Notes under the pieces: model-generated
Database searches by the model: none
What the model saw: the letters and a program-made list of their open reading frames with translations, nothing else
Told to the model about the DNA's origin: nothing
Origin: a virus
Lineage: Duplodnaviria; Heunggongvirae; Uroviricota; Caudoviricetes
IMG/VR virus record: IMGVR_UViG_2563366830_000017
Coordinates: 1 to 54,176 of that record
Length of the DNA stretch: 54,176 bases
Strand: one strand, 5' to 3'
In this document: piece by piece, positions 26,754 to 54,027 of the stretch
How positions within the stretch are numbered: the stretch's first letter is position 1
Layout: every line of letters starts with the position of its first letter
Program-made: the position numbers and the translations under genes

Positions 26754-27029
26754 ATGTCGATGTACACAACCGCCCAGCTGCTGGCGGCAAATGAGCAGAA
26801 ATTTAAGTTTGATCCGCTGTTTCTGCGTCTCTTTTTCCGTGAGAGCTATCCCTTCACTACGGAGAAAGTCTATCTCTCACAAATTCCTGGACTGGTAAAC
26901 ATGGCGCTGTACGTTTCGCCGATTGTTTCCGGTGAGGTTATCCGTTCCCGTGGCGGCTCCACCTCTGAATTTACGCCGGGATATGTCAAACCCAAGCACT
27001 TAGCATGGCTTTCTGAGGCTTTCGTGTAG
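26754..27029 (+). pseudogene. E: Major capsid protein E, 5-prime fragment (82 lambda-like codons then 10 foreign codons and stop) created by insertion
   Basis: MSMYTTAQLLAANEQKFKFDPLFLRLFFRESYPFTT...GYVKPKH matches lambda E; then LAWLSEAFV-stop. Confidence 0.9.
26989..26998. repeat. Left copy of 10-bp direct repeat AACCCAAGCA at island junction
   Basis: Identical 10-mer at 38323..38332; lambda-like E sequence ends here. Confidence 0.75.
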
Positions 27030-27110
27030 TTGCTGGTTTTTACACTTAATCTTTTGATAATAAAGAATAAGTTTATCTGGCGCTTTCACTGAATTTTCCT
27101 CGTTATCTGT

Positions 27111-27146
27111 GTGTTGCAATCATCTCTGTATTGCAGCTTGTATTGC
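27111..27146 (+). repeat. Candidate integrase arm-type sites: three copies of TGT(A/G)TTGC(A) near left end
   Basis: GTGTTGCA, TGTATTGCA, TGTATTGC read in sequence; two more TGTATTGCA copies at 38227..38247. Confidence 0.45.
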
Positions 27147-27161
27147 TTTTTGGGGCTAAAA

Positions 27162-28397
27162 ATGGCTGGCGAGAACAAACTGAGCGACAAAGCGCTTAAA
27201 GGATATCTGGGGAAACCCAGAGAAAAGCAGATCACCATTGCTGATGGAAAGGGGCTTTCTATTCGTGTGAGTACTAAAGGGGCTGTGAGCTTTGTTTTCT
27301 TCTACAGGTTAGCAGGTGGCCGGGCTGCTCCGGTCTGGCTAACGTTGGGTAAATATCCTGATATGTCACTCAAACAGGCAAGGGAAAAGCGCGACGAGTG
27401 CCGTGGTTGGTTGGCTGACAAACGTGATCCGCGTATCCAGATTAAGATTCAGGCTGAAGAACGCTTAAAGCCGGTCACAGTGGAGGATGCACTAAATTAC
27501 TGGTATGAAAACTACTGTAAGGTGCGTCGTAAAACTCATGCTGTAACGCTTGGCAGATTTCGAAAGCATATCTTTCCCTATATCGGTCATTTGCCCGTAA
27601 ATGACACTCACCTATATGAATGGCTGGACTGTTTTGACCGAATTAAACGTAATGCACCAGTTATGGCGGCGTATGTTTTTTCTGACACTAAATTAGCTCT
27701 TCGTTTTTGTCGGGTACGCCAGTACGCGACGTGTGATGCTTTAAAGGATTTGCGCATGAGTGATGTGGGGCAGATTGCAGGTAAGCGGGATCGGGTTCTG
27801 GATGAAGCCGAACTCGGCCAGCTCTGGAAGGCAATTTTTGTCGAGCCTGATTTAAAACTAATGTCTGAATACACGCGAAAAATGTTTGTGCTTTGTACAG
27901 TATTTGGATGTCGAATGAGTGAAGCCCGATTATCAGAATGGAGCGAATGGGATCTCGAAAGTTGGGTTTGGACTGTGCCAAAAGATCACTCAAAAACTGG
28001 TGTTGAAATCGTCAGACCAGTACCTGAAATTCTACGACAGTGGGTAACGGATGTTCACGAAGAGACAAAACATACTGGTTATGTGCTGGGAAGTCTGCGA
28101 ATTAGAGAAAGCGTAAGCAAGATTGGGGGGAAAATCGGTAAACGTTTGGGCCATGAAAAACAATGGTCACTACACGACCTTAGAAGAACGCTATCTACTC
28201 ATCTAAGTGATCTCGGTGTTGAATTTTATGTAGTAGAACAACTGTTAGGCCATGCGCTACCTGGCGTGGCAGGTGTTTACAACCGGAGTAAGTTTATGGC
28301 TAAAAAACTGGATGCTCTGGAACTCTGGACTACATATCTCAATAGCATCGCAGCTGCTGATTCAAAAGTGACAATCCTCAAACAAAAGGCTGGTTAG
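27162..28397 (+). CDS. Tyrosine integrase, P4-type (island-encoded)
   Basis: 411 aa from ATG; C-terminal HxLRxT...HxxxxxxxxY-like catalytic region (HELR...HDLRRT...LGHA...VY); adjacent to left junction. Confidence 0.85.
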   Translation: MAGENKLSDKALKGYLGKPREKQITIADGKGLSIRVSTKGAVSFVFFYRLAGGRAAPVWLTLGKYPDMSLKQAREKRDECRGWLADKRDPRIQIKIQAEERLKPVTVEDALNYWYENYCKVRRKTHAVTLGRFRKHIFPYIGHLPVNDTHLYEWLDCFDRIKRNAPVMAAYVFSDTKLALRFCRVRQYATCDALKDLRMSDVGQIAGKRDRVLDEAELGQLWKAIFVEPDLKLMSEYTRKMFVLCTVFGCRMSEARLSEWSEWDLESWVWTVPKDHSKTGVEIVRPVPEILRQWVTDVHEETKHTGYVLGSLRIRESVSKIGGKIGKRLGHEKQWSLHDLRRTLSTHLSDLGVEFYVVEQLLGHALPGVAGVYNRSKFMAKKLDALELWTTYLNSIAAADSKVTILKQKAG

Positions 28398-28398
28398 C

Positions 28399-28629
28399 AT
28401 GAAAAAAATGGCAATTGTTGATAAAAAGGGTCTGGAGTACATTCCTAACATTGACCGAATGATCCGTGAGAAAGAATGTCGGGAGCTAACTACTCTTGCG
28501 AACAGCACACGCTGGAAGCTGGAGAAGGAAGGAAAATTTCCTAAGCGGATCAAGATTGGTTCCACTGCTGTTGCATATCGTCTTTCAGAAGTGCAGGCAT
28601 GGATTCGAGGTGAGTGGGAAACAACTTAA
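28399..28629 (+). CDS. AlpA-family HTH regulator/excisionase-like protein
   Basis: 76 aa; placed immediately after integrase as in P4-like and PICI elements. Confidence 0.7.
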   Translation: MKKMAIVDKKGLEYIPNIDRMIREKECRELTTLANSTRWKLEKEGKFPKRIKIGSTAVAYRLSEVQAWIRGEWETT

Positions 28630-28636
28630 CTATTAG

Positions 28637-29467
28637 GTGGGCATTGTGGCTATATTTCATTATACAGATCTTTTTGGTTTGAAAGGTATATTAGACTCTA
28701 ATTCTTTATGGGCTACAAACATATATTTCTTAAATGATAAAGAGGAGTCTAACCATGGATGTGAATGCTTTCGAAATACAATTAAAATAGTTGATGACAA
28801 TATCATTCCAAAAGATAAGAAAACTATTTTGCTCAAGTCTCTTGACATGTATGAGAAAGGGAGGTTACAAAAAGAAAAAGGGATTGATAAACATGTTTAT
28901 AGCATCTCTTTTTGTAAGGAAAACGATAAGTTAAGTCAGTGGAGAGGTTACGGAAATAAACAGGGTGTTTGCATTGAGTTTGATGCGGATGAACTTGTGA
29001 GCTTTTCTCAAAATATTTATTTAAATTGTGTTGCACATGATGTTATATATTCAAATAATAACGATATTACTAAGATGAGTAAGGAGTTGGGAGAGTTTTT
29101 TTCTTGTAATGGTATTAACATTAAAGAAATGAATGATCATTTTGTAACAATGGTCTCTACGTATCAATTTATATCTAAATACATCCCATTTTTTAAACAT
29201 CCTAGTTTTATCGAAGAGAATGAATTTAGATTGGTATTTACTCCGTGGATGCAAATGCCAGATGTGCACTTCAGAATAAATAATAATGGAATCATCCCTT
29301 ATATCATCATTGATAATAAAGATAATAGAAAGTTACCAATTAAAAGCATTACAATTGGCCCGACAAACGATTATGATTTCATTGAGGCTGGTATAAAAAT
29401 GTTCTTGGATTCAAGAGGATTTAGTTCTGTGGAAATTAAATCCTCATCAATTCCATTCAGGGGGTAA
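28637..29467 (+). CDS. DUF2971-like protein (AT-rich cargo gene)
   Basis: N-terminal FHYTDLFGLKGILDSNSLWATNIYFLNDKEE resembles the DUF2971 signature as I recall it; GTG start; low GC. Confidence 0.55.
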   Translation: MGIVAIFHYTDLFGLKGILDSNSLWATNIYFLNDKEESNHGCECFRNTIKIVDDNIIPKDKKTILLKSLDMYEKGRLQKEKGIDKHVYSISFCKENDKLSQWRGYGNKQGVCIEFDADELVSFSQNIYLNCVAHDVIYSNNNDITKMSKELGEFFSCNGINIKEMNDHFVTMVSTYQFISKYIPFFKHPSFIEENEFRLVFTPWMQMPDVHFRINNNGIIPYIIIDNKDNRKLPIKSITIGPTNDYDFIEAGIKMFLDSRGFSSVEIKSSSIPFRG

Positions 29468-29598
29468 GGATTAACACTTTTAATCTGTGATATTATAAAA
29501 ATGGTGGATAAAGGCGACCAGAATTGGTCGCCAATGTGAGTATATAGTTAGCCTTAATCAGAATACGAGGTTATCGCCTGATAGGCAATGTGAACAGT

Positions 29599-29955
29599 TC
29601 AATATTTAGGTGGTTCAACAAGAGCGTTTATCATTGCTCTCAAATTATCGCGAACACTTATCCAAGTCTGTTCTGCTCGTTCTAACTCATCAGTGTACAA
29701 CTTTAATGTTTTATCTATGCCATATGTGGCTATTAAATTTATAGCTTCTTGTAATTTTTCAGGATTATTCCTTCTTGGGGGAGTGAATATACCACGGATT
29801 TTTCCGGTAATTAAAGCTTTACGGTGTCTACATAGAATACCTTTACTTCCTGCTGGACAATTACAAGTCATGATTAGCGAGCCAGAATCGTTTGATACAG
29901 TGACTATGTATACATCCAAACTACTGCTACTTGTTGCGAAGAATTCGTATTTCAT
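29599..29955 (-). CDS. SWIM-type zinc-finger protein (CxCx8CxH), AT-rich cargo gene
   Basis: Motif CNCPAGSKGILCRH seen in translation; convergent with DUF2971-like gene. Confidence 0.5.
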   Translation of the reverse strand: MKYEFFATSSSSLDVYIVTVSNDSGSLIMTCNCPAGSKGILCRHRKALITGKIRGIFTPPRRNNPEKLQEAINLIATYGIDKTLKLYTDELERAEQTWISVRDNLRAMINALVEPPKY

Positions 29956-29982
29956 GTGTTAGCTCCTTGACTTCAATTATTC

Positions 29983-30114
29983 TTATCCTTTTGGTTCAAT
30001 ACCGCGCCGTAGCAGCTCTTTGCGCCCTAATTCTTTAAGCCAGTTGGCTAGGCTTATGCCGTCGCTCTGCGCTTCTTTGTCGAATTGCTCTTTTAGCTCT
30101 GGAGAAATTCGCAT
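29983..30114 (-). CDS. Small basic protein, possible ribbon-helix-helix repressor (43 aa from ATG)
   Basis: MRISPELKEQFDKEAQSDGISLANWLKELGRKELLRRGIEPKG; divergent from downstream plus-strand operon. Confidence 0.4.
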   Translation of the reverse strand: MRISPELKEQFDKEAQSDGISLANWLKELGRKELLRRGIEPKG

Positions 30115-30313
30115 TCTGAATTGTGGAGATTGCCCATCACCCTTAGGACTTTTATCGCGTTTGATCGTTGACAAGTGACCACCTATTGAATTAGCCTTTT
30201 CATTGTTAGGTGGCCACCTTAACACGGGGGCACTTAAAAAAGCAAAGCCCGAAGGTGCTGGGAACACCAACGGGCTTCTAACCACCAACGATAGCAACAG
30301 TATCGAGGTAGCT

Positions 30314-30517
30314 ATGAGAAATCATACCACACACCCGCAAGGGCGGGACCCGCACAACCTGAATAAATACATCTGGCGTTTTATCGCCTTGAGTACGGCA
30401 CAACCGCGCATGATTACCATCGAGGCCATCAGCGAACAGGAAGCCCGCCAGCAATCCCCAACTGGCTGCGTGATGGTATTCGCCGCCCGTATTCGTCAGG
30501 AGGTGTGCCGTGCTTAA
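30314..30517 (+). CDS. Hypothetical small protein, first gene of island early operon
   Basis: ORF track 30203..30517; ATG at 30314 chosen. Confidence 0.4.
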   Translation: MRNHTTHPQGRDPHNLNKYIWRFIALSTAQPRMITIEAISEQEARQQSPTGCVMVFAARIRQEVCRA

Positions 30518-30695
30518 AACCTTCCGTGTATTTGCCCGAGCTGTTAACCCACTGGGCCACACAATTGGTATCACTCAGAACGTGAAGGCTGTTAATGTTC
30601 AGACGGCTATTGCTGCGGTGAGAAGCGAATCATCAGAATATGGCTTATCACAAGTCATTATTTCAGCAGTGTATGAATTAAAAGAGGTGCATTAA
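30510..30695 (+). CDS. Hypothetical small protein
   Basis: 61-aa ORF, overlapping starts/stops in operon. Confidence 0.45.
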   Translation: MLKTFRVFARAVNPLGHTIGITQNVKAVNVQTAIAAVRSESSEYGLSQVIISAVYELKEVH

Positions 30696-30886
30696 TGCAG
30701 GAAATCACATTACACGAAGCCGCTGAACGTGCGCACCAGACAGAAATTATTTGCCGCCTTCTTGAGGTATACCCGAACAAAATTACAGATGCTGATATAT
30801 CCGCGCTGGCGAGCCTACTGGCGCGCCTTTCGGGAAGTGTCGCTAGTTTCCTGATTGAGGAAGAAAGTAAGCTGGTGGGGGATTAA
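30695..30886 (+). CDS. Hypothetical small protein
   Basis: 63-aa ORF, translationally coupled in operon. Confidence 0.45.
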   Translation: MQEITLHEAAERAHQTEIICRLLEVYPNKITDADISALASLLARLSGSVASFLIEEESKLVGD

Positions 30887-31108
30887 ATGAATACAGAACG
30901 GGAAGTCTTTTTTAAATTGTTAGCATGTGCAGAAAGTCCATTAACTTTAAATAATTCAGCAAAAGCAATATTAAATATGTGGCTTGATTGCATAAATGAC
31001 AATGAAGATGCAAATATTGCTTATGGCCTGTTGTCACTTATTGATGAATCAGCAGAAAAACTCAATGACGCAATAAATAGTGCCCTGCTATCAAATAAGT
31101 CGAGTTAA
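30887..31108 (+). CDS. Hypothetical small protein
   Basis: 73-aa ORF in operon. Confidence 0.45.
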   Translation: MNTEREVFFKLLACAESPLTLNNSAKAILNMWLDCINDNEDANIAYGLLSLIDESAEKLNDAINSALLSNKSS

Positions 31109-31125
31109 GTCGAGGAATAAATAAT

Positions 31126-31425
31126 ATGGAAATGAAAAATTCTGGCTTTATTGCCAGCGGCCCCGCTCGGCCTGAATTTATGAACGGCGATATTTACCGC
31201 GATAAATACGGCGGCACGGTAACGATTAAAGGCGTGGCAGAACGGCGCATCACTTACCGCCGTGAGGGGTATAGCTATGACTGCGTGATGCCTGTTTATC
31301 AGTTCCGGCGTGATTTTTCCCTGGTATATGCCGCACCCCGCAGTAAGCCCATCAGCAGGGAAAAAGCGCGGGGAAACATCCAGAAAATGAAAAGCATGAT
31401 TAACGCATTCAGGGGCAAAAAATGA
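31126..31425 (+). CDS. Hypothetical protein (99 aa)
   Basis: ORF immediately upstream of and overlapping primase start. Confidence 0.5.
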   Translation: MEMKNSGFIASGPARPEFMNGDIYRDKYGGTVTIKGVAERRITYRREGYSYDCVMPVYQFRRDFSLVYAAPRSKPISREKARGNIQKMKSMINAFRGKK

Positions 31426-33173
31426 AACTGGCACCGAACTTAAAAAAACAGCCACGCGACAGACTGACAGAGGTAATCATCTTTGCAGGTAGTGATGCGT
31501 GGAGCCATGCGAAAGAGTGGCGGGAATGGGCGGGTAAACATATTGCCGCCGACGATGTGCCGCCTGTCGTGCTGGCTGATGAGCAACTGAAAAATATCAC
31601 CGATTACCGGATCATTGATGAAGATCGTCAGTGTGTGCGTGTTTACCGCGCAGGACATATCACAGAGCACAGCATGACGCAGATTGTTACGTTACTGGCT
31701 GTGGCTGGAGTGAAGACCGTACACGAATACGCGGGGATTACTGACACCAGCCCAGTGGATTTATCCGAGCAGTTGCCGCGACTCAAAGAGGAATGCGAGC
31801 GTGGGGAAAGTCTGGTGCTTAATCTTCCGACGAAGCAAAAGGCGCAACTTTCACAGATGGCAGACAGTGAACGTGCACAACTACTTGCCGATCGCTTTGA
31901 TGGTGTGTGTGTTCATGCAGAAAGTGAAATCGTCCACGTATGGCGCGGCGGGGTATGGTGTCCGGTCAGCACAATGGAGCTGAGCCGCGAAATGGTGGCG
32001 ATCTATTCAGAGCACAGGGCCACGTTCAGCAAACGTGTAATCAATAACGCCGTGGAAGCGTTAAAAGTTATTGCCGACCCCATGGGGGAGCCGTCCGGTG
32101 ATTTGCTACCGTTCACTAATGGTGTGCTTAACCTGAAAACGGGGGAATTTTCTCCGCACTCGCCGGAGCACTGGAGCACCACGCACAATGGCATTGAGTA
32201 CACGCCACCAGTAGCAGGGGAAAACATCCGCGATAATGCGCCAAATTTCCATAAATGGCTTGAACATGCCGCAAGAAAAGACCCGCGCAAGATGATGCGT
32301 ATATGTGCCGCGTTATACATGATTATGGCGAACCGCTACGACTGGCAGATGTTCATTGAGGCCACCGGAGACGGGGGAAGCGGTAAGAGTACATTTACCC
32401 ATATTGCCACCCTGCTTGCTGGCAAACAGAACACCGTAAGCGCGGAGATGACATCACTCGATGATGCAGGAGGGCGCGCGCAGGTTGTCGGGAGTCGTCT
32501 TATCGTCCTTGCCGATCAGCCGAAATATACGGGGGAAGGCACGGGCATCAAGAAAATCACGGGAGGCGATCCCGTTGAAATTAACCCGAAATATGAGAAG
32601 CGATTCACGACGATAATAAGGGCGGTGGTACTGGCAACCAATAACGACCCGATGATCTTTACCGAACGGGCCGGAGGTGTGTCACGCCGTCGGGTGATTT
32701 TCCGGTTCGACAACATTGTAAGGGAGGACGAAAAAGACAAGGAATTACCGGAAAAGATAGCGGCAGAAATCCCCGTAATTATCCGCCGCTTGCTGGCTAA
32801 TTTTGCTGACCCTGAAAAGGCACGGGCTTTATTACTGGAACAGCGTGACGGTGATGAAGCTCTGGCAATAAAGCAGCAAACGGATCCGGTTGTTGAGCTT
32901 TGCGCGGCGCTGGAGTTTCTGGAGGAAGCTCGTGGGCTAATGATGGGCGGTGGTGGTGACACCGTGAAGTACACGACCAGAAACAGCCTTTACCGTGTCT
33001 ATATGGCCTTCATGGCATACACAGGAAAGGGGAAATGTTTGAGCGTGAATGAGTTCGGAAAGGCTATGAGGTCAGCGGCGAAAGTTTACGGATATGAATA
33101 TATTACGCGAAAAGTTAAGGGAGTCACGCAGACCAACGCAACGACTACTGATGATTGCGATGCGTTTTTATAA
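31422..33173 (+). CDS. Primase/replication protein (P4-alpha C-terminal-like, with Walker A GDGGSGKST)
   Basis: 583 aa; P-loop GDGGSGKS seen; followed by iteron array. Confidence 0.8.
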   Translation: MKLAPNLKKQPRDRLTEVIIFAGSDAWSHAKEWREWAGKHIAADDVPPVVLADEQLKNITDYRIIDEDRQCVRVYRAGHITEHSMTQIVTLLAVAGVKTVHEYAGITDTSPVDLSEQLPRLKEECERGESLVLNLPTKQKAQLSQMADSERAQLLADRFDGVCVHAESEIVHVWRGGVWCPVSTMELSREMVAIYSEHRATFSKRVINNAVEALKVIADPMGEPSGDLLPFTNGVLNLKTGEFSPHSPEHWSTTHNGIEYTPPVAGENIRDNAPNFHKWLEHAARKDPRKMMRICAALYMIMANRYDWQMFIEATGDGGSGKSTFTHIATLLAGKQNTVSAEMTSLDDAGGRAQVVGSRLIVLADQPKYTGEGTGIKKITGGDPVEINPKYEKRFTTIIRAVVLATNNDPMIFTERAGGVSRRRVIFRFDNIVREDEKDKELPEKIAAEIPVIIRRLLANFADPEKARALLLEQRDGDEALAIKQQTDPVVELCAALEFLEEARGLMMGGGGDTVKYTTRNSLYRVYMAFMAYTGKGKCLSVNEFGKAMRSAAKVYGYEYITRKVKGVTQTNATTTDDCDAFL

Positions 33174-33179
33174 AAAATG

Positions 33180-33430
33180 GCAATGGTTATCTACCTTGTC
33201 TACCTGACTGAAAGAAAATACTTTTATTTCAATGTATTAATGCAGGTAGATAACTATTTTTCACTGTCTACCTGTTATCTACCTTATCTACCCATTTTTG
33301 TAGACAGGTAAGGAGACGGGTAGAGATGAGGTAGACAGCTATTTGGGGCTGTCTACCTCCCTGAAACCCGCGCCATTACTGGCCTGATAACTAATCAGGT
33401 AGACAAGGTAGACAAGGTGGTGGTGCACAA
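33180..33430. repeat. ori: Island replication-origin iterons (GGTAGACA / TGTCTACC family, both orientations)
   Basis: At least 10 copies of (A)GGTAGAC(A) or its complement within 250 bp directly after primase gene. Confidence 0.75.
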
Positions 33431-33462
33431 AAAACTTTTTAAACGAGGGGGTAAAAATAAAA

Positions 33463-33720
33463 ATGCACACATCAGGAAAACTGAACAAACATATAAAGCC
33501 ACATTACCGCGCCCTTGATATGGCTGAACACTGGCTAAGGGTGGCGATTAAGGCAATAGACCGCAACGCCGGGGAAGGATACGCGAAAGCACATCCCGAA
33601 CTGATAAGCGCATTCATGACAACGGCGGCTGCAAACTTTGCCACGCTGACCGAACGGGAGATTGCTGAAGCGGAGGAAGTGACAACAATCAATATTAAGT
33701 CCGGAGAGCAGGCAGCATGA
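33463..33720 (+). CDS. Hypothetical protein (85 aa)
   Basis: ORF overlapping ssb start. Confidence 0.45.
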   Translation: MHTSGKLNKHIKPHYRALDMAEHWLRVAIKAIDRNAGEGYAKAHPELISAFMTTAAANFATLTEREIAEAEEVTTINIKSGEQAA

Positions 33721-34166
33721 CGGCGCAAATATCAGTTTACGGGCGGTTGGTGGACGACCCGCAGACAAAACAGACCAGCAAGGGCACCCCCATGACGCTG
33801 GCGCGTATGGCGGTATCACTGCCCTGCAGTCAGTCGGATGACGGTCTGGCGACGTTGTGGTTATCTGTCCTGGCGTTTGGCAGACAAGCCGACGCGCTGG
33901 CAAAGCATCACAAAGGCGAACTCCTGAGCGTGGCGGGTAACATGCAGATGAGCCAGTGGACTGGACAGAACGGCGAAACGCGGCAGGGCTGGCAGGTTAT
34001 CGCAGACAGCGTAATCAGTGCGCGATCGGTGCGACCGGGCGGCAAAAAAGGCCAACAGGGGCAGGCTACTGACGCACTGAACAGAGCAAAACAACAGGCA
34101 GATCAGCAAGGAAGCCAGCCACCAGAGGGAGATAATGAGCAATGGGGAGATGATATCCCGTTTTAA
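33717..34166 (+). CDS. ssb: Single-stranded DNA-binding protein
   Basis: OB-fold-like N-region, Gln/Gly-rich linker and acidic C-terminal tail ending DDIPF. Confidence 0.85.
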   Translation: MTAQISVYGRLVDDPQTKQTSKGTPMTLARMAVSLPCSQSDDGLATLWLSVLAFGRQADALAKHHKGELLSVAGNMQMSQWTGQNGETRQGWQVIADSVISARSVRPGGKKGQQGQATDALNRAKQQADQQGSQPPEGDNEQWGDDIPF

Positions 34167-34382
34167 ATATTGCCAATAAAAAAAGCCGGAAAAAATAAAT
34201 TTTCCGGCATGCTACATAAATCCCGACCAAAGGGAGTGAAGATATTAACACTAATTGTCCGCACTGAAGTTGTCACCCCAAAACTTTATACAACATTGCA
34301 CTCGGTTGCATGTGTTCGCATGACAAATATCGGTGATAGCATATATCCACAATTATTTTTAATGAATGCAAAGAGGATGCGT

Positions 34383-35423
34383 ATGGTTGATTTATATTCG
34401 CCTACTCAGCTTGTACAGGTAGTTAATGCTGTAGATGTACAAAAACAACTAAATGCGTTATTTACCAGTTTGTTTTTTACTCGCTCGGTAATGTTTGAAT
34501 CGCGCGATATTATTCTTGATACAATCGACGATCCAAATATCCCAATTGCAGCGTTTTGTTCTCCTATGGTGGGTAGTAAAGTTTCACGTGACGAAGGGTA
34601 CGAATCAAAAACAATTCGTCCAGGCTATATGAAGCCGAAAAGCAGCATTGATCCAAATAAGTTAGCTGTGCGCCCTGCTGGTGTGTCACCTGAGCAATAC
34701 AATGCTTTTGGGGCGCGTAATATTAAAGTTAAACAGGCGATTGTAAATCAGGCTAAAGCTATTCGTGCACGTATTGAATGGCTTGCTGTTCAGGCAATCA
34801 CAACGGGGAAAAATATCATTGAGGGCGATGGTATTGAACGTTATGAGCTGGACTGGAATATAAAACCACAAAATATCATCACTCAGTCTGGCGGTACTGA
34901 GTGGTCAGGTAAGGATAAAGAAACTTTTGATCCAAATGATGATATTGAGAGCTACGCAGAATTTAGTGAGGGCGTCACTAATATCATCATTATGGGTGGT
35001 AATGTATGGAAGAAATACCGTTCATTCAGAGCGATAAAAGAGGCTTTGGATACCCGTCGTGGTTCTAATTCCGAACTGGAAACGGCCCTTAAAGACCTTG
35101 GTGATTCGGTGAGTTTTAAAGGGTATATGGGCGATGTTGCGATTGTTGTTTACAGCGGGCGTTATACCGACGAGGACGGAACAGAAAAACATTTCCTTGA
35201 TCCTGATTTGATGGTGCTTGGCAATACGGCTCTTCAGGGGATTGTCGCCTATGGCGGTATTCAGGATCCGGAGCTAATCCGAATGGGGCTGACTAAAGCC
35301 GAACTTGCACCGAAAAACTATATTGTGCCTGGTGATCCGGCTATTGAATATGTGCAGACACATTCAGCACCACAGCCAATACCGGCCCGCATCAATCGTT
35401 TTGTTACCGTTCGCATTGGCTAA
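34383..35423 (+). CDS. Island-encoded major capsid protein, diverged homolog of lambda E
   Basis: Blocks shared with prophage E: NIITQSGGTEWSGKDKETFDPNDDIESYA, LDTRRGSNSELETALKDLG, YMGDVAIVVYSGRY, MVLGNT; ORF track 34170 start is upstream. Confidence 0.85.
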   Translation: MVDLYSPTQLVQVVNAVDVQKQLNALFTSLFFTRSVMFESRDIILDTIDDPNIPIAAFCSPMVGSKVSRDEGYESKTIRPGYMKPKSSIDPNKLAVRPAGVSPEQYNAFGARNIKVKQAIVNQAKAIRARIEWLAVQAITTGKNIIEGDGIERYELDWNIKPQNIITQSGGTEWSGKDKETFDPNDDIESYAEFSEGVTNIIIMGGNVWKKYRSFRAIKEALDTRRGSNSELETALKDLGDSVSFKGYMGDVAIVVYSGRYTDEDGTEKHFLDPDLMVLGNTALQGIVAYGGIQDPELIRMGLTKAELAPKNYIVPGDPAIEYVQTHSAPQPIPARINRFVTVRIG

Positions 35424-35432
35424 GGGGGAGCA

Positions 35433-35774
35433 ATGGCTACTCATTACACTGAACTCATGGCTGGCACTGAAGCACTGGTGACTACGCTGGGGATATTTTC
35501 AGCTAATAAAGGGGTAATTCCTGCATTTACGCCACTGATGCAGGAAGATGCAACAGGTGCACTGGTGGTATGGGATGGTTCGAGCGTAGGTAAAGCGGTT
35601 TATGTTTCCGCTGTACAAATCGACACCGCGAAAAAAACACAGGCTCAGGTCTATAAGACAGGTGTCTTAAATGTTGATGCTCTGAACTGGCCTGAGTCTG
35701 TTAAAGAACTGTCAGTAAAGATTGCAGCGTTTGTTGGCTCAGGTATTTCTGTTCAGCCGCTGGCTCGTGTGTAA
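35433..35774 (+). CDS. Island-encoded decoration protein, diverged homolog of lambda D
   Basis: THYTEL, FTPLMQEDATGALVVWDGSSVGKAV, YKTGVLNVDALNWPE, AAFVGSGISV align with prophage D motifs. Confidence 0.8.
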   Translation: MATHYTELMAGTEALVTTLGIFSANKGVIPAFTPLMQEDATGALVVWDGSSVGKAVYVSAVQIDTAKKTQAQVYKTGVLNVDALNWPESVKELSVKIAAFVGSGISVQPLARV

Positions 35775-35785
35775 AGGGGGATACA

Positions 35786-36169
35786 ATGCAGAATGATTAC
35801 AATGACCTTAAGCCAATTGCCGAAATGATGTACCCGAATCCAGCTGTAGAGGAATTAAAAGCTATCGCTGACAAAATGTGTTTAAGCGAGCGCCTTGTTG
35901 ATATGAATCAGGTGATGGAAATTACAACCCTGAGTCGTCGTACACTGCTAAACCTTGAGGCTAGTGGAGAGTTCCCGGAGCGTGTGCAGGTTACGGAAGG
36001 GCGTAAGGCCTGGTATTTAAGTGAAGTGATCGACTGGATAAATAATATTCCTCGCGCTTCTGAATATTGCCGCGTACCTGTCCCAAAAAAGCCAGATGCG
36101 GCGCTATGCCTCAAGATTGAGCGTGTACGCCGCAATGCACGGGATGGTCGCTATAAGCTGATTGGTTGA
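35786..36169 (+). CDS. HTH protein (AlpA/MerR-like C-terminal half) immediately upstream of island cos
   Basis: 127 aa; segment MNQVMEITTLSRRTLLNLEASGEFPERVQVTEGRKAWYLSEVIDWI looks like AlpA-type HTH. Confidence 0.55.
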   Translation: MQNDYNDLKPIAEMMYPNPAVEELKAIADKMCLSERLVDMNQVMEITTLSRRTLLNLEASGEFPERVQVTEGRKAWYLSEVIDWINNIPRASEYCRVPVPKKPDAALCLKIERVRRNARDGRYKLIG

Positions 36170-36194
36170 TGAAATTAGGGCCCGCTCTGGCTGG

Positions 36195-36400
36195 CGGGTC
36201 CTTTCCGGTGATCCAGAACGTTACGGGGCGTCAGGCGCGCAGATTCTTGCTATTTATGACAATTTTCTGCGATTTGCCGTTTCCGTTCTTCTTCCTTGTA
36301 ACTTATTGTTTTTACTAGAAATACCCTCTAAAAAGAAAGGAAATGACAGGTGCTGAAAACAGGCTTTTGGGTCTCCGTCATTTCCTTTCTCATTTTTATC
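36195..36400 (+). other. cos: Island cos-like site, same orientation as prophage cos
   Basis: GGGTCCTTTCCGGTGATCC...ACGTTACGGGGCG...CGCG...GCTATTTATGA...AAAAAGAAAGGAAATGACAGGTGCTGAAAAC aligns block-by-block with 20591..20800. Confidence 0.8.
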
Positions 36401-36652
36401 TAAAAGTAAGCATCGAGGCCACCCCAAATGCTTATAGAGGTTATTGTGTCACTATGCGTACTGTTCAGGATTTAAAGTAGCAAGACATCTAGTTGCTTGC
36501 AGTTTTGGCGAATGATGTGAGGTTCTCTATAACAGATAATGTAACAAGTTACTGATATATTCTGTTATGGTTGACTTTAAATTTTGTTGCTCCTTCAATG
36601 AATTATTGAGGGGTAAAAATTAGGCGTGATAAGAATCGATCACGCCTATTGT

Positions 36653-37969
36653 TTATCTTGAAGAAATTTTAGGCAGGCTTTTTAAAAATAAATCTTTATT
36701 TCTACTTGCATCAGTTAAAAGTGTTAGGAATATTTTATCTGTAGGAGTGCATGTGCTCTTGTTTAACAGTAATTCACCAAGTTTCTGTAATCGAGAGAAT
36801 TGCCCATCCTCTTGGATTCTGTGACGAAGTGTACTATCATTTTTAATAACATCAACAAATGCAGAAACCATATTAATATCAAAGTGTTCAAACATTTCCA
36901 ATATTAAAGGTGCAGCCCCATTTGAATAAAAATTCTTCCTTCCATACTGATAGCTGAAACCACGATGGCCAACATAAGTTTTTGTAATGGCTGAAACAAA
37001 TTCAACAATATTATCTTCAGGGACGAAACTCGAGAATGGTAATAATTGGGTTACGATTTTTTCCTCTTCTGACCAATTATCTAAAGACTCGGTGAGTTTA
37101 TTAATGAGAGGCTCAATAATAACTTTTCGGGATGCAGGGCTAATATACATCAGTCCATCTACCAATAGTATGAATTGTTGTGCCTTCTCTATCTTATTGT
37201 TGTTTCCTGAAACTAAATACTTGTCAAATTGTTGGCCGACTTTACGTCGGTCGTCTTTTGAAAGTAATGTCCATAAAATAGGTGCGCAAAATTCAATGTT
37301 GTTTCTGAGTTCACTTGATATATTGGATGAGCAGTATGTGCCAAAAAAACGAGAGGATAATTCACTGATATAAATTGCAGGTAGATCTGAAAAGGCTTGC
37401 TTAACTGCCAGACTATTTTTATTAAATGTTGCCGAATCCATTTCTGAAAGATATGTAGTTATATCTATGATGGCTGGTGGAAACTCTTTAGAAAGAACGT
37501 ATTTATTACAATCATTAATCAGGTTCACTACTTTGATTAAATCAGGGTCGCTACTTTGTGGATGTCCACCAAATAGATTCCTGGTTTCTCTAGCTTGTTG
37601 TAATAGTTTCTGACCTTCTCGATCGATAACTCCTATTTTAAATGCTCCATCTATTAAATCAAAGTCGCTCACATAATCCTGAAAATCTTCATACGTTTTA
37701 ATTTCTTTTTTTTGTTTACACTCTTTGTTGAATAGATCTAGGCTACGATGAATTATCTTTTGACGTAAATCATCAACTACAGCATTCCAGTAAGCAGTGA
37801 TGGCACTTCTATAACCTTTTACAGGAAGAACTCTTATTGCTTCTGAAATATATGGGCAGTCAACTACATCATGCCTCACAGTTGAGAGCGCAGTTTGTAA
37901 CAATGTAACTTCTGTAGAGTCTAGTGGAGTTGGCTGCACTAAATGAGAACTTATCTCTGTACCCTTCAT
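36653..37969 (-). CDS. Hypothetical 438-aa protein, AT-rich cargo gene between island cos and right junction
   Basis: Low GC; contains R-x5-H motif (RNLFGGH); no family confidently assigned. Confidence 0.6.
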   Translation of the reverse strand: MKGTEISSHLVQPTPLDSTEVTLLQTALSTVRHDVVDCPYISEAIRVLPVKGYRSAITAYWNAVVDDLRQKIIHRSLDLFNKECKQKKEIKTYEDFQDYVSDFDLIDGAFKIGVIDREGQKLLQQARETRNLFGGHPQSSDPDLIKVVNLINDCNKYVLSKEFPPAIIDITTYLSEMDSATFNKNSLAVKQAFSDLPAIYISELSSRFFGTYCSSNISSELRNNIEFCAPILWTLLSKDDRRKVGQQFDKYLVSGNNNKIEKAQQFILLVDGLMYISPASRKVIIEPLINKLTESLDNWSEEEKIVTQLLPFSSFVPEDNIVEFVSAITKTYVGHRGFSYQYGRKNFYSNGAAPLILEMFEHFDINMVSAFVDVIKNDSTLRHRIQEDGQFSRLQKLGELLLNKSTCTPTDKIFLTLLTDASRNKDLFLKSLPKISSR

Positions 37970-38322
37970 TTCAGGATTTTCCTATTCTTTTCCATTTTTC
38001 TACTCTATTGAATTTGAAAAAGATATCAAGTTCGTTCTTGCCAGTTTTAAGTGGAAAATTTGATGTTACCTTATTGAGATAAGGCAGTTCTCTATAACCT
38101 ATTGTTATTAATTATTTTTATTTTTTTCCAATTCAGATGTTTAGGGCTAAGAAGTTAAGTGAGAGTTCACAGCAAAACTGCTTCTAGTTCCTCACCGAGG
38201 AGCAAAAGGTTAAGACAGCGTACTTTGTATTGCACAATGTATTGCAGAACCTTCTTTCGAAAGCTACAACAATCAATTTTATATTGAAAATTCAATCATA
38301 TCCTTTCGATATTGACTCATAT

Positions 38323-38332
38323 AACCCAAGCA
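38323..38332. repeat. Right copy of 10-bp direct repeat AACCCAAGCA at island junction
   Basis: Identical to 26989..26998; lambda-like E sequence resumes here. Confidence 0.75.
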
Positions 38333-47416: not shown

Positions 47417-50400
47417 ATGGGTAAAGGCAGCAGTAAGGGGCATACCCCGCGCGAAGCGAAGGACAACCTGAAATCCACGCAGCTGCTGAGTGTGATTGAT
47501 GCCATCAGCGAAGGGCCGATTGAAGGTCCGGTGGATGGATTAAAAAGCGTGCTGCTGAACAGTACGCCGGTGCTGGACAGTGAGGGGAATACCAATATAT
47601 CCGGCGTCACGGTGGTGTTCCGGGCAGGTGAGCAGGAGCAGTCACCGCCGGAGGGATTTGAATCCTCCGGCTCCGAGACGGTGCTGGGTACGGAAGTGAA
47701 ATATGACACGCCGATCACCCGCACCATTACGTCGGCAAACATCGACCGTCTGCGCTTTACCTTCGGTGTACAGGCACTGGTGGAAACCACCTCAAAGGGT
47801 GACAGGAATCCGTCGGAAGTCCGTCTGCTGGTTCAGATACAGCGTAATGGTGGCTGGGTGACGGAAAAAGACATCACCATTAAGGGCAAAACCACCTCGC
47901 AGTATCTGGCCTCGGTGGTGGTGGGTAACCTGCCGCCGCGCCCGTTCAATATACGGATGCGCAGGATGACGCCGGACAGCACCACAGACCAGCTGCAGAA
48001 CAAAACGCTCTGGTCGTCATACACCGAAATCATCGATGTGAAACAGTGCTACCCGAACACGGCACTGGTCGGCGTGCAGGTGGATTCGGAGCAGTTCGGC
48101 AGCCAGCAGGTGAGCCGTAATTATCATCTGCGCGGGCGCATTCTGCAGGTGCCGTCGAACTATAACCCGCAGACGCGGCAATACAGCGGTATCTGGGACG
48201 GAACGTTTAAACCGGCATACAGCAACAACATGGCCTGGTGTCTGTGGGATATGCTGACCCATCCGCGCTACGGCATGGGGAAACGTCTTGGTGCAGCGGA
48301 TGTGGATAAATGGGCGCTGTATGTCATCGGCCAGTACTGCGACCAGTCAGTGCCGGACGGCTTTGGCGGCACGGAGCCGCGCATCACCTGTAATGCGTAC
48401 CTGACCACACAGCGCAAGGCGTGGGATGTGCTCAGTGATTTTTGCTCGGCGATGCGCTGTATGCCGGTATGGAACGGGCAGACGCTGACGTTCGTGCAGG
48501 ACCGACCGTCAGATAAGGTGTGGACCTACAACCGCAGTAATGTGGTGATGCCGGATGATGGCGCGCCGTTCCGCTACAGCTTCAGCGCCCTGAAGGACCG
48601 CCATAATGCCGTTGAGGTGAACTGGATTGACCCGAACAACGGCTGGGAGACGGCGACAGAGCTTGTGGAGGACACGCAGGCCATTGCCCGTTACGGTCGT
48701 AACGTCACGAAGATGGATGCTTTTGGCTGTACCAGCCGGGGGCAGGCACACCGCGCCGGGCTGTGGCTGATTAAAACAGAACTGCTGGAAACGCAGACCG
48801 TGGACTTCAGCGTGGGTGCCGAAGGGCTTCGCCATGTACCGGGCGATGTCATTGAAATCTGCGATGATGACTATGCCGGTATCAGCACCGGCGGGCGCGT
48901 GCTGGCGGTAAACAGCCAGACCCGGACGCTGACGCTCGACCGTGAAATCACGCTGCCATCTTCCGGCACCACGCTGATAAGCCTGGTTGACGGGCAGGGG
49001 AGTCCGGTCAGCGTGGAGGTTCAGTCCGTCACCGACGGCGTGAAGGTAAAAGTGAGCCGTGTTCCTGACGGTGTTGCTGAATACAGCGTATGGGGGCTGA
49101 AGCTGCCGACGCTGCGCCAGCGACTGTTCCGCTGCGTGAGTATCCGTGAGAACGACGACGGCACGTATGCCATCACCGCCGTGCAGCATGTGCCGGAAAA
49201 AGAGGCCATCGTGGATAACGGGGCGCACTTTGACGGCGAACAGAGTGGCACGGTGAATGGTGTCACGCCGCCAGCGGTGCAGCACCTGACCGCAGAAGTC
49301 ACTGCAGACAGCGGGGAATATCAGGTGCTGGCGCGATGGGACACACCGAAGGTGGTGAAGGGCGTGAGCTTCCTGCTTCGCCTGACCGTGGCAGCGGATG
49401 ACGGCAGTGAGCGGCTGGTCAGCACGGCCCGGACGACGGAAACCACATACCGCTTCACGCAACTGGCGCTGGGAAACTACAGGCTGACAGTCCGGGCGGC
49501 AAATGCCTGGGGGCAGCAGGGCGATCCGGCATCGGTATCGTTCCGTATTGCCGCACCGGCAGCGCCGTCGCGGATTGAGCTGACGCCGGGCTATTTTCAG
49601 ATAACCGCCACGCCCCATCTTGCCGTTTATGATCCGACGGTACAGTTTGAGTTCTGGTTCTCGGAAAAGCGGATTGCGGATATCAGGCAGGTTGAAACCA
49701 CAGCCCGCTATCTTGGCACGGCGCTGTACTGGATAGCTGCCAGTATCAATATCAAACCGGGCCATGATTATTATTTTTACATCCGCAGTGTGAACACCGT
49801 TGGCAAATCGGCATTTGTGGAGGCTGTTGGCCAGCCGAGTGATGATGCATCCGGCTATCTGGATTTTTTCAAAGGCGAGATAGGGAAAAGCCATCTGGCT
49901 CAGGAGCTGTGGACGCAGATTGATAACGGTCAGCTTGCGCCTGACCTGGCTGAAATCAGGACGTCCATTACGGATGTCAGCAATGAAATCACGCAGACCG
50001 TCAATAAGAAACTGGAAGACCAGAGTGCGGCAATTCAGCAGATACAGAAGGTTCAGGTTGATACAAATAATAACCTGAACAGCATGTGGGCTGTGAAGCT
50101 GCAGCAGATGCAGGACGGACGCCTTTATATCGCGGGTATTGGTGCCGGTATTGAGAACACCCCTGACGGCATGCAGAGTCAGGTGCTGCTGGCGGCGGAC
50201 AGGATTGCGATGGTTAATCCTGCGAATGGCAACACAAAGCCGATGTTTGTTGGTCAGGGCGATCAGATATTTATGAATGAAGTGTTCCTGAAATATCTGA
50301 CGGCTCCCACCATTACCAGCGGCGGTAATCCTCCGGCATTTTCCCTGACACCGGACGGGCGGCTGACGGCGAAAAATGCCGATATCAGCGGTAACGTGAA

Positions 50401-50896
50401 TGCGAACTCCGGGACGCTCAACAACGTCACGATTAACGAGAACTGCCGGGTTCTGGGAAAACTGTCCGCGAACCAGATTGAAGGCGATCTCGTTAAAACA
50501 GTGGGCAAAGCTTTCCCCCGGGACTCCCGTGCACCGGAACGGTGGCCATCAGGGACCATTACCGTCAGGATTTATGACGATCAGCCGTTTGACCGGCAGA
50601 TTGTTATTCCGGCGGTGGCATTCAGCGGCGCTAAACATGAGAGAGAGCATACTGATATTTACTCCTCATGCCGTCTGATAGTGCGGAAAAACGGTGCTGA
50701 AATTTATAACCGTACCGCGCTGGATAATACGCTGATTTACAGTGGCGTTATTGATATGCCTGCCGGTCACGGTCACATGACGCTGGAGTTTTCGGTGTCA
50801 GCATGGCTGGTAAATGACTGGTATCCCACAGCAAGTATCAGCGATTTGCTGGTTGTGGTGATGAAGAAAGCCACCGCAGGCATCAGTATCAGCTGA
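47417..50896 (+). CDS. J: Central tail fibre/host specificity protein J (divergent C-terminal receptor-binding region)
   Basis: 1159 aa; first ~800 aa lambda-J-like, C-terminal third diverges. Confidence 0.93.
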
Positions 50897-50963
50897 ATTT
50901 TATAACCCCAATACGGGCGTCAGAAATGACGCCTTTTTTATTGCAGAAAAGCGAGAGGTAATT

Positions 50964-51617: not shown

Positions 51618-51627
51618 TGGAGTGGAT

Positions 51628-54027
51628 ATGGCAGCAGTAAAAATCTCAGGTGTGCTGAAAGATTGTGCGGGAAAACCAATACAGAACTGCACTATTCAAC
51701 TGAAGGCAAAGCGTAACAGCACCACGGTACTGGTGAACACGGTGGCCTCTGAAAATCCGGATGAAGCCGGGCGTTACAGCATGGATGTTGAGCATGGCCA
51801 GTACAGCGTCATCCTGCTGGTTGAAGGTTTTCCGCCTTCACATGCCGGGACCATTACCGTCTATGAAGGCTCCAGACCAGGTACGCTGAATGATTTTCTC
51901 GGTGCCATGACGGAAGATGATGTCATGCCGGAGGCATTGCGTCGTTTTGAGGAAATGGTGGAAGAAGCGGCACGCAACGCCGAAGCCGCCTCTCAGAGCG
52001 CAGCGGCGGCAAAGAAATCCGAAACTGCAGCGGCATCATCGAAGAACGCGGCGAAAACCTCAGAAACGAATGCAGCTAATAGTGCACAGGCGGCAGCGAC
52101 CTCACAGACTGCATCAGAAAACTCCGCGACAGCAGCCAAAAAATCAGAAACCAACGCGAAAAATAGCGAGACAGCCGCAAAGACGAGCGAAACCAACGCA
52201 AAGTCCAGCCAGACGGCAGCGAAAACCAGCGAAACGAATGCCAAAGCCAGTGAAACTGCGGCAAAAAACAGCCAGGTTGCAGCAGCCCAAAGCGAGAGCG
52301 CGGCAGCCGGTTCTGCGACTTCAGCAGCTGGATCAGCAACTGCTGCGGCTAACAGCCAGAAAGCTGCGAAGACGAGTGAAACTAACGCAAAGTCCAGCCA
52401 GACGGCAGCGAAGACCAGCGAAACGAATGCCAAAGCCAGCGAAACTGCGGCGAAAAACAGCCAGGTTGCAGCAGCCCAAAGCGAGAGCGCGGCAGCTGGT
52501 TCTGCAAGCGCGGCGGCTGCTTCTGCCACTGCATCAGCCAACAGTCAAAAAGCGGCAAAAACCAGTGAAACCAATGCAAAGACAAGCGAGACTGCAGCGG
52601 CGAACTCGGCGAAAGCATCGGCAGCAAGCCAGACAGCAGCTAAAGCAAGTGAAGACGCAGCCAGAGAGTATGCAAGTCAGGCAGCAGAGCCGTATAAATA
52701 TGTCTTACAGCCACTGCCTGATGTGTGGATACCGTTTAACGATTCACTGGATATGATTACGGGCTTTTCGCCGTCATATAAAAAAATTGTTATTGGTGAT
52801 GATGAAATAACGATGCCTGGCGACAAGGTTGTTAAGTTTAAACGCGCATCAACTGCCACATATATCAATAAATCAGGCGTATTTAGTGTTGCTAAAATTG
52901 ATGAGCCACGATTTGAAAAAGAAGGTTTATTGATTGAAGGACAGCGCACTAACTATTTTGTTAAATCCAATACTCCCGCTGAATGGACGAGTACCAGCAA
53001 TATCGATAAAACTAATAATGGTGTTGATGAATTTGGTTTTTCATATGCCAAAATGCGAACAAAAGATAATATGACAGGACAATCATCTGCACTTAGTCTG
53101 CATACATGCAGTGCATCCCGGGGGATTGATGTTAGTGGCGATAATAAGTATTGCACTGTTTCATGCAGGGTTAAAGCTCCTGATGGTCTTCGTTGTCGTT
53201 TGCGTTTTGAAAAATACGATGGGTCGGTTTATACATTTTTAGGAGATGCTTATTTAACTTTCGGAACTCTGATAATAGAAAAAACTGGCGGAGCAGCCAA
53301 TAGAATAGCAGCTACTGCAACTAAAGATCCGGTTACAGGGTGGATTTTCTATGAGGCAACTATAGAAGCTGTTGAAGGTGAAACCTTAATTGGCGCAATG
53401 ATTCAGTATGCGCCGAAAAAAGGTGGTATAACTGAAGCGGGAGATTATATTTACCTTGCAACACCACAATTTGAAAACGGCGGATGTGCTTCATCTTTTG
53501 TTATTACGACAACTGCACCCGCAACCCGCTCCAGTGATATGGTGACGATCCCAACTGAAAATAATATCTATAATAGACCGCTTACGTGTCTTGTCGAGGT
53601 TAATAGAAATTGGGGCGATATTCCTCCTAATGTAGCACCGCGTATTTTTGATTTTTCTGGTGTGCCACCTATTGAGTCAATTACATACGCTTTTAACACA
53701 ACTGAGAAATATTACGGTCAGCTTTATATGCAAACTTATAAAGCGTCGACAAGTACTTACGTTTCTAGTGTGTTTGCTGGTCGAACTGATGTTCGAAAAT
53801 TCATTGGTGGTTTTAATATTTATTCTGATGGTACTAAACGAGTAGTTTCTAACGGTGAGGCTACTAAAACTATGAAAACGGAGTGGACGGGCGTAAAAAC
53901 ACGGACCTTTATTCGAATTGGAGGTCAAGCCACATCGGGAACTCGTCATCTATTCGGCCATTTGAGAAATCTTCGTCTCTGGCATAAAGAATTAACTGAT
54001 GCGCAAATGGGGGAGAGTATTAAATGA
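51628..54027 (+). CDS. stf: Side tail fibre protein Stf (lambda-like N-terminus, repeat-containing shaft, divergent AT-rich C-terminal domain)
   Basis: MAAVKISGVLKDCAGKPIQNCTIQLKAKRNSTTVLVNTV... matches lambda Stf N-terminus; Ala/Ser/Thr-rich repeats. Confidence 0.85.
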   Translation: MAAVKISGVLKDCAGKPIQNCTIQLKAKRNSTTVLVNTVASENPDEAGRYSMDVEHGQYSVILLVEGFPPSHAGTITVYEGSRPGTLNDFLGAMTEDDVMPEALRRFEEMVEEAARNAEAASQSAAAAKKSETAAASSKNAAKTSETNAANSAQAAATSQTASENSATAAKKSETNAKNSETAAKTSETNAKSSQTAAKTSETNAKASETAAKNSQVAAAQSESAAAGSATSAAGSATAAANSQKAAKTSETNAKSSQTAAKTSETNAKASETAAKNSQVAAAQSESAAAGSASAAAASATASANSQKAAKTSETNAKTSETAAANSAKASAASQTAAKASEDAAREYASQAAEPYKYVLQPLPDVWIPFNDSLDMITGFSPSYKKIVIGDDEITMPGDKVVKFKRASTATYINKSGVFSVAKIDEPRFEKEGLLIEGQRTNYFVKSNTPAEWTSTSNIDKTNNGVDEFGFSYAKMRTKDNMTGQSSALSLHTCSASRGIDVSGDNKYCTVSCRVKAPDGLRCRLRFEKYDGSVYTFLGDAYLTFGTLIIEKTGGAANRIAATATKDPVTGWIFYEATIEAVEGETLIGAMIQYAPKKGGITEAGDYIYLATPQFENGGCASSFVITTTAPATRSSDMVTIPTENNIYNRPLTCLVEVNRNWGDIPPNVAPRIFDFSGVPPIESITYAFNTTEKYYGQLYMQTYKASTSTYVSSVFAGRTDVRKFIGGFNIYSDGTKRVVSNGEATKTMKTEWTGVKTRTFIRIGGQATSGTRHLFGHLRNLRLWHKELTDAQMGESIK
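52130..52560 (+). repeat. Tandem duplication within stf (~190-bp unit encoding SETNAKSSQTAAKTSETNAKASETAAKNSQVAAAQSESAAAGSA)
   Basis: Near-identical nucleotide blocks 52190..52330 and 52380..52510; explains spurious overlapping ORFs in other frames. Confidence 0.75.

Follow-up and report, generated by a model that had tools for sequence, protein, structure and literature searches.

A mosaic lambda-family tail tip protein with a receptor-binding domain that probably recognizes OmpC

Gene J, which encodes the tail tip or central tail fiber protein, lies at positions 47417..50896 on the plus strand of the window, the name used here for the whole 54,176-nt stretch of Caudoviricetes DNA that was analyzed. 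In the list of open reading frames (ORFs), the gene is intact, and its 1159-amino-acid product contains both peptides quoted in a preliminary description of this DNA, which had singled out positions 49790..50896, that is, amino acids 792 to 1159 of J plus the stop codon. J follows H-M-L-K-I and precedes lom and stf, as seen in the ORFs of the window and in the annotation of the identical region of Escherichia coli MS 196-1, and this is the operon position of a lambda-family tail tip gene. Membership in that family is further evidenced by a full-length match to the NCBIfam profile NF049904 (lambda_TipJ), on which residues 1 to 1159 align with profile positions 1 to 1163 at a score of 2389.8 bits, above the cutoff of 1950. 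Amino acids 792 to 1159 were also compared by phmmer with the chains of solved gpJ structures. E values of 3e-132 to 9wca_J, 7e-112 to 8xcj_Z, and 2e-110 to 8iyk_J indicate, at the level of sequence, that these 368 residues are homologous to the gpJ shaft, beta-prism fiber, and Ig-like receptor-binding domain (RBD).

Several smaller features surround or overlap the gene. A consensus scan detected a terminator-like hairpin with a T-run between J and lom (50915..50944, +; 50915 to 50934 for the hairpin), and a terminator is annotated at the equivalent place in phage 21. Farther downstream is stf, the side tail fiber gene (51622..54027, +), an ORF with an NCBIfam spike-fiber domain match that is labeled "prophage tail fiber N-terminal domain-containing protein" in MS 196-1. 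In lambda-like tails, the stf product is the second factor that determines host range. The ORF list also contains two antisense ORFs within J, one of 461 amino acids at 48509..49894 (-) and one at 50263..50559 (-), as well as an out-of-frame ORF that overlaps J at 50400..50678 (+). We treated all three as by-products of a G+C-rich coding strand.

The J gene is 100% identical at the nucleotide level to that for gpJ (WP_000515396.1) of MS 196-1, and J is 99.5 to 99.8% identical in six further complete genomes. The protein is already known, in that RefSeq holds an identical entry named by PGAP and the receptor of its RBD class has been published, having been established in work that retargeted lambda-derived delivery particles (PMC11338833). 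Because the allele is common as well, J is an ordinary finding in these respects.

The prophage occupies the attachment site of lambda: ybhC lies at window positions 1..1284, and ybhB/bioA lie past the right end in MS 196-1. Collinearity of the window with MS 196-1 was considered and rejected, since the two differ by an 11.3-kb island and by IS3. The island, which is extra relative to MS 196-1, spans positions 26999..38322 and interrupts E, the major capsid gene. The 10-bp repeat AACCCAAGCA bounds it on both sides, and removal of the island restores a 341-amino-acid E protein. The element codes for an integrase, a P4-type primase, SSB, and AlpA, in addition to a capsid protein of the E family and a D-like decoration protein of its own. 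The same element is found at the same site in unrelated genomes, and it matches the published helper-embedded PICI "11capE" (PMC10111431).

Interruption of the capsid gene could be taken to mean that the prophage is defective and that J is decaying within it, without an adsorption function, and a downstream tail fiber gene is likewise truncated by IS3 in MS 196-1. We consider this very improbable. The ORF of 1159 codons is intact, the sequenced phage PhiR55_1, for which a propagation host is on record, has an identical RBD, and J is 99.5 to 100% identical across the seven best-matching genomes, which come from different sources. Moreover, what interrupts E is a satellite of a known type, which inserts site-specifically and reversibly.

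Relative to lambda J (1132 amino acids; NC_001416), the overall identity of J by BLASTP is 84%, and a MAFFT-based alignment was used to break this figure down by segment. The preliminary description had held that the N-terminal ~800 residues track lambda J closely, and indeed amino acids 1 to 805 are 98.4% identical (792/805). It had also held that the last ~350 residues differ. Divergence from lambda is borne out over amino acids 792 to 1159 (56.2% identity over 340 aligned positions, with 29 gap positions besides), but it does not form one block; rather, two divergent modules flank a conserved stretch of 50 residues. Identity to lambda is 54.3% for amino acids 806 to 960, where the window protein has 28 residues more, 92% for amino acids 961 to 1010, and 41.6%, with loop indels, for amino acids 1011 to 1159.

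The nucleotide sequence displays the same pattern. In 150-nt sliding windows, identity to lambda is 92 to 100% up to about nucleotide 2400 of the gene, except for 85% in the final one ahead of the junction. It is then 27 to 65% between nucleotides 2400 and 2850, returns to 76 to 87% between about 2800 and 3000, and is 48 to 56% from about 3000 to the end. At the first junction, G+C content falls from 0.60 to 0.63 to 0.51 to 0.54. Because these identity transitions are sharp, and because the fall in G+C content occurs at the same place, J is a mosaic and not a product of gradual decay; its divergence marks a mosaic junction and is neither scattered drift nor chance.

Three modules and the conserved block can be mapped onto the architecture of lambda gpJ, for which cryo-electron microscopy has described hub domains, two FNIII domains, an alpha-helical shaft (residues 809 to 861), a beta-prism straight fiber, and an Ig-like RBD whose bottom bears four loops (PMC11101478). 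Module 1 (amino acids 1 to 805; 47417..49831, +) is the lambda-type hub with its FNIII domains, as evidenced by its 98.4% amino acid identity to lambda J, in keeping with the neighboring tail genes, which are lambda-like as well. Module 2 (amino acids 806 to 960; 49832..50296, +) corresponds, by its identities and by the mapping of the lambda shaft, to the alpha-helical shaft and upper straight fiber in a non-lambda allele that is 96.8% identical to that of phage 21 and 94.8% identical to that of VT1-Sakai. The conserved block (amino acids 961 to 1010; 50297..50446, +) is the lower fiber just above the RBD and is 88 to 100% identical at the amino acid level to all of the compared J proteins. 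Module 3 (amino acids 1011 to 1159; 50447..50893, +) is the RBD, whose identities assign it to a "1A2/VT1-Sakai" class of putative OmpC binders. The preliminary description had equated the whole divergent C terminus with the receptor-binding domain. This holds for the last ~150 residues, whereas residues ~806 to 960 belong to the helical shaft and fiber and not to receptor binding.

The 28 residues that J has in excess of lambda J are located in the shaft. An AF2 single-sequence model of amino acids 792 to 1159 reached a mean pLDDT of only 38 and was left out of the fold search; in this poor model, a helix predicted over fragment residues 50 to 105 (block-mean pLDDT, 43 to 75) hints that the shaft might be longer than that of lambda.

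For many lambdoid phages, the similarity detected by megablast ends at nucleotide 3029 or at nucleotides 3100 to 3104 of J. Because these ends fall inside or just after the conserved block, they mark the block as the recombination junction. Phage 2G7b provides evidence of a further kind: its J joins a lambda-type middle module to the same C-terminal module as that found here, which argues that modules 2 and 3 have been exchanged independently. Phage 21 J is 97 to 98% identical to the window protein over amino acids 1 to 960, the long shaft allele included, but its RBD is only 66.9% identical and has loops that resemble those of the A8/phi330 class.

A tblastn search of 50,697 phage records with the RBD revealed that the ends of lambda-family J proteins fall into discrete classes. 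Members of the window's own class are at least 94% identical to it, whereas phage 21 stands at ~63%, the O157/Stx prophage classes at 58 to 60%, lambda at 42.5%, and 434 at ~41%. Over the 149 residues of the aligned domain, identity is 100% to PhiR55_1, 98.0% to 2G7b, and 97.3% to VT1-Sakai, the last without indels, compared with 66.9% to phage 21, 63.4% to phi330/A8, 44.5% to 434, and 41.6% to lambda. Near-identity and matching loop lengths together place the RBD in the 1A2/VT1-Sakai class.

Three other assignments were considered and rejected. A lambda-type, LamB-binding RBD does not fit the 41.6% identity, the loop gaps, and the separate megablast class. A 434-type, OmpC-binding RBD does not fit the 44.5% identity and 12 gap positions. 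Although phage 434 J (h434 host range) is itself a lambda-family J that uses OmpC (PMC12502783), as the window protein probably does, several indels set its RBD apart as a separate class. Finally, an A8/phi330-type RBD does not fit the 63.4% identity, the absence of the long ENFNSNNQQS hairpin, and another loop that is 4 residues longer in the window protein.

Direct receptor data for the 1A2/VT1-Sakai class come from Brödel et al. (Nature 2024), who fused the C termini of natural E. coli gpJ proteins to lambda gpJ. Two of the resulting chimeras, A8 and 1A2, deliver DNA via OmpC into cells from which lamB has been deleted (PMC11338833). The DNA of gpJ 1A2 is given in the supplement in codon-recoded form, which explains why the RBD DNA of the window has no exact-string match in that supplement. 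We worked from a copy of 1A2 that was machine-read from the PDF and contains OCR errors, with eight positions unreadable and five more garbled. In a frameshift-tolerant protein-to-DNA alignment, amino acids 1004 to 1159 of J agree with 1A2 at 139 of 148 readable positions, and, OCR damage apart, the differences are I1052V, R1076K, D1134N, and S1157T. These four residues are exactly the VT1-Sakai haplotype, and we therefore equate 1A2 with the VT1-Sakai RBD, which matches gpJ 1A2 at every informative readable position.

VT1-Sakai (Sp15, the Stx1 prophage of E. coli O157:H7) is thus among the closest known systems. Its RBD is identical to that of the window at 145 of 149 residues, with equal loop lengths, the same conserved junction, and only the four conservative substitutions just listed, and it shares the shaft/fiber allele of the window protein (94.8%). 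In contrast, its N-terminal 800 residues are only ~72% identical, and the VT1-Sakai gene contains a frameshift.

Brödel and colleagues assayed 1A2 in MG1655 lacking lamB and ompC and supplied with plasmid-borne OmpC variants. Delivery exceeded 75% for 20 of the 23 variants and was at most 2% with OmpC G1 (the K-12 allele), G2, and G40 (PMC11338833). On wild-type MG1655, which is LamB+, 1A2 achieved 5% delivery at an MOI of 50, whereas wild-type lambda achieved 98% on this strain (PMC11338833). The authors state that 1A2 recognizes EDL933 OmpC and not LamB (PMC11338833). In that paper, the numbers supplied as Source Data for Extended Data Fig. 2c duplicate those of panel b, and so the EDL933-OmpC result rests on Fig. 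1b, Extended Data Fig. 1 (G17), and Extended Data Fig. 8a. The assays placed the 1A2 RBD on the lambda shaft and fiber, unlike the window J, which has a different shaft allele (PMC11338833).

Evidence from a more distant class is consistent with these results. Phage phi330 no longer plates when ompC has been deleted from the host, and complementation restores its plating (PMC12502783); reference 47 of that paper concerns PP01 and no lambdoid J. The Protein Data Bank holds "A8 gpJ 713" alone (9wca) and with OmpC (9wcb), and the A8 sequence is of the phi330 type. A8/phi330 J and the window protein thus have a fold and probably a receptor in common at 63% RBD identity, but they differ in their loops, and A8 accepts K-12 OmpC, while 1A2 does not.

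Taken together, we propose that J is a recombinant tail tip, made up of lambda-type amino acids 1 to 805, a phage 21/O157 shaft-fiber, and a 1A2 RBD, that uses OmpC instead of LamB, and we assign this reading a probability of roughly 0.85. This exact allele, which is four conservative substitutions away, would be expected to behave like 1A2. The preliminary description had suggested either a receptor other than LamB or a different LamB allele. The first suggestion gains support at the level of sequence, because the near-identical RBD of 1A2, a member of the same class, works without lamB via OmpC and barely works on LamB+ K-12. The second does not, given that 1A2 needs a suitable OmpC and does poorly even on LamB-bearing K-12.

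That the RBD still binds LamB, perhaps an allele other than that of K-12, would nevertheless accord with the fold and overall architecture that J has in common with lambda gpJ (PDB 8XCJ/8XCK/8IYK) and with the standing of LamB as the classical J receptor. Yet alignment with lambda J and with J proteins of known receptor type shows that the divergence is large and includes the RBD, which is only 41.6% identical to that of lambda and has loop indels, on top of a shaft that is 28 residues longer. Since 1A2, whose RBD is nearly the same, delivers into cells without lamB and fails on LamB+ K-12, we regard LamB binding as highly unlikely and a receptor different from that of lambda as the probable one.

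For the OmpC reading, the 1A2 data and the A8-OmpC structure suggest that a trimeric RBD would dock, by its bottom loops, onto trimeric OmpC and not onto LamB, and that only some OmpC alleles would be accepted. Docking would cause the three RBDs to spread, the beta-prism fiber to twist, the helical shaft to flip, and the tail tip to open, whereupon DNA would be ejected. This relay of RBD spreading, fiber twisting, shaft flipping, and tip opening has been described for lambda gpJ on LamB (PMC11101478), and we infer by analogy that J may operate in the same way.

Three loops of the RBD can be aligned with parts of phi330 gpJ for which AlphaFold3 modeling of the interface with OmpC has been reported (PMC12502783). 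The loop DSRAPERW (amino acids 1036 to 1043; 50522..50545, +) is 4 residues longer than its counterpart in phi330/A8, T918-Y921 of phi330, which has been discussed as a potential OmpC-contact loop (PMC12502783). The hairpin tip EREHT (amino acids 1075 to 1079; 50639..50653, +), which includes the R1076K site, is 5 to 6 residues shorter than in phi330/A8, where the phi330 counterpart E953-S962 is predicted to point into the OmpC barrel (PMC12502783). Lastly, the hairpin VNDWYP (amino acids 1132 to 1137; 50810..50827, +), which includes the D1134N/G site, corresponds to A1015-P1020 of phi330, predicted to touch the OmpC barrel's rim (PMC12502783).

Because R1076 and D1134 lie in hairpins predicted to form the OmpC interface, the OmpC alleles accepted by J could differ from those accepted by 1A2, and these two sites could fine-tune the choice. 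A stronger version of this idea is that the four substitutions relative to 1A2 move specificity to another porin (OmpF, PhoE, or an NmpC/Lc-type porin) or to a set of OmpC alleles that differs markedly. In addition to the location of R1076 and D1134 in predicted contact hairpins, this version could draw on the natural occurrence of D, N, and G at position 1134 and on the finding that a few point mutations can give lambda J the use of OmpF (PMC11101478). We consider it unlikely, however, because all four changes are conservative (I/V, R/K, D/N, and S/T) and because their distribution in nature is that expected of variation that is nearly neutral or serves fine-tuning inside one receptor class. 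Among the 80 closest IMG/VR loci, there are 23 distinct RBD sequences, and the only high-frequency polymorphisms are K986R, I1052V, R1076K, D1134N/G, and S1157T. At sites 1052, 1076, 1134, and 1157, 10 of the 16 possible haplotype combinations occur in these loci, including I-R-D-S, as in the window, in 9 of the 80 and V-K-N-T, as in 1A2, in 23.

Host records of related phages lend circumstantial support to the OmpC reading. GenBank lists E. coli C, presumably the propagation strain, as the host of PhiR55_1, which carries the identical RBD. More broadly, the ΦR phages with this RBD class are recorded from E. coli C or ECOR13 and never from K-12, and the K-12-hosted phages among the RBD search matches have 434-type or lambda-type RBDs. 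This pattern fits the failure of 1A2 on K-12 OmpC. As for receptor data elsewhere, the SNIPE paper on the ΦR phages reports ManYZ dependence only, and receptors go unmentioned in the paper announcing the genomes of phages 21 and 434.

Between Q and the lysis genes, the prophage also carries a gene (16715..17797) for a porin of the OmpC family, and this porin shares 90.7% identity with Lc, the porin of phage PA-2. Porin-based receptor replacement, or exclusion, was reportedly proposed long ago for PA-2. Tentatively, the I-R-D-S haplotype might recognize a set of OmpC alleles other than that of 1A2, and the Lc/NmpC-like porin of the prophage and J might together be a receptor-replacement module that shields the lysogen from its own kind; we consider this rather unlikely, although conceivable. 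If it were true, the micro-alleles of the J RBD and the alleles of OmpC would form a natural matching-allele system, common to the phage and its embedded satellite.

For annotation, the value of the OmpC reading is that the prophage should adsorb via OmpC in an allele-dependent manner and not via LamB. If the embedded satellite uses the tails of its helper, then its host range is therefore also set by the J of the window, and, presumably borrowing those tails, it should likewise adsorb via OmpC.

The prevalence of the RBD was assessed by comparing the last 457 nt of J with 5,426 complete E. coli genomes, and 3,398 of these gave a match. In 729 records, the best copy reaches at least 99% identity, and in 1,817 more it is 95 to 99% identical, such that ~2,550 records carry a copy of at least 95% identity. 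Of the 5,426 genomes, 98 contain lambda's own RBD, and many of these 98 belong to laboratory strains, DE3 lysogens among them. The RBD class of the window is, therefore, the common form in E. coli and that of lambda the rare one, which makes textbook lambda, with its LamB-type RBD, the outlier.

The prophage itself carries a gene for an OmpC-family porin (16715..17797, minus strand; NF007841, 521 bits) between the Q antiterminator on one side and the lysis genes on the other. Phages 2G7b, ev017, and ev207 encode porins that are 100% identical to this protein, which shares 90.7% identity with the Lc porin of phage PA-2. Where the J end of a porin-encoding lambdoid phage could be classified, the receptor-binding domain belongs to a non-LamB class, and this co-occurrence hints that the prophage porin may serve in receptor replacement or exclusion.

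Comparison with the prophage of E. coli MS 196-1, whose J gene is identical to that of the window, revealed differences. The lambda-like major capsid gene E is interrupted in the window by an 11.3-kb integrative element (26999..38322), which is bordered by direct repeats at 26989-26998 and 38323-38332, whereas the MS 196-1 prophage, otherwise ~100% identical, lacks it. The element codes for an integrase, a P4-type primase, an SSB, and AlpA, as well as an E-family capsid protein and a D-like decoration protein of its own. Its exact deletion from the sequence restores an E protein of 341 amino acids, and unrelated genomes carry the element at the identical site. The element matches the published helper-embedded PICI "11capE" (PMC10111431).

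Conversely, at the site corresponding to window positions ~15798-15802, MS 196-1 has a 1.3-kb insertion of the IS3 family beside a truncated rusA-like gene. No such insertion is present in the window, which therefore derives from a near relative or another assembly rather than from the MS 196-1 sequence itself. Mapping of coordinates to the MS 196-1 annotation also placed a lipoprotein gene of the iss/bor type ("increased serum survival") at 19572..19865 (minus strand), adjoining the lysis cassette in the window. Genes of this kind are typical lysogenic-conversion genes of lambdoid phages.

The side tail fibre gene (51622..54027, plus strand) encodes long tandem repeats rich in Ala, Ser, Thr, and Lys at about residues 120-350, and these repeats show a strong AT skew. 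Because the G+C content of its C-terminal part is only 0.38-0.40 from ~52750 onward, base composition suggests that the distal domain of the fibre may have been swapped. The tail-fibre gene that follows it downstream in MS 196-1 has been cut short by IS3.

Within J, an antisense open reading frame of 461 amino acids (48509..49894, minus strand) lies wholly in the G+C-rich part and is most likely a codon-bias by-product of the coding strand rather than a gene.

Finally, in the Source Data for Extended Data Fig. 2 of PMC11338833, the numbers for 1A2 and A8, two gpJ chimeras that deliver DNA via OmpC, are the same in panel C (OmpC-EDL933) as in panel B (OmpC-MG1655). The repetition appears to be a copying mistake in that file; the OmpC-EDL933 result is backed by Fig. 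1b, Extended Data Fig. 1 (OmpC variant G17), and Extended Data Fig. 8a of that paper.
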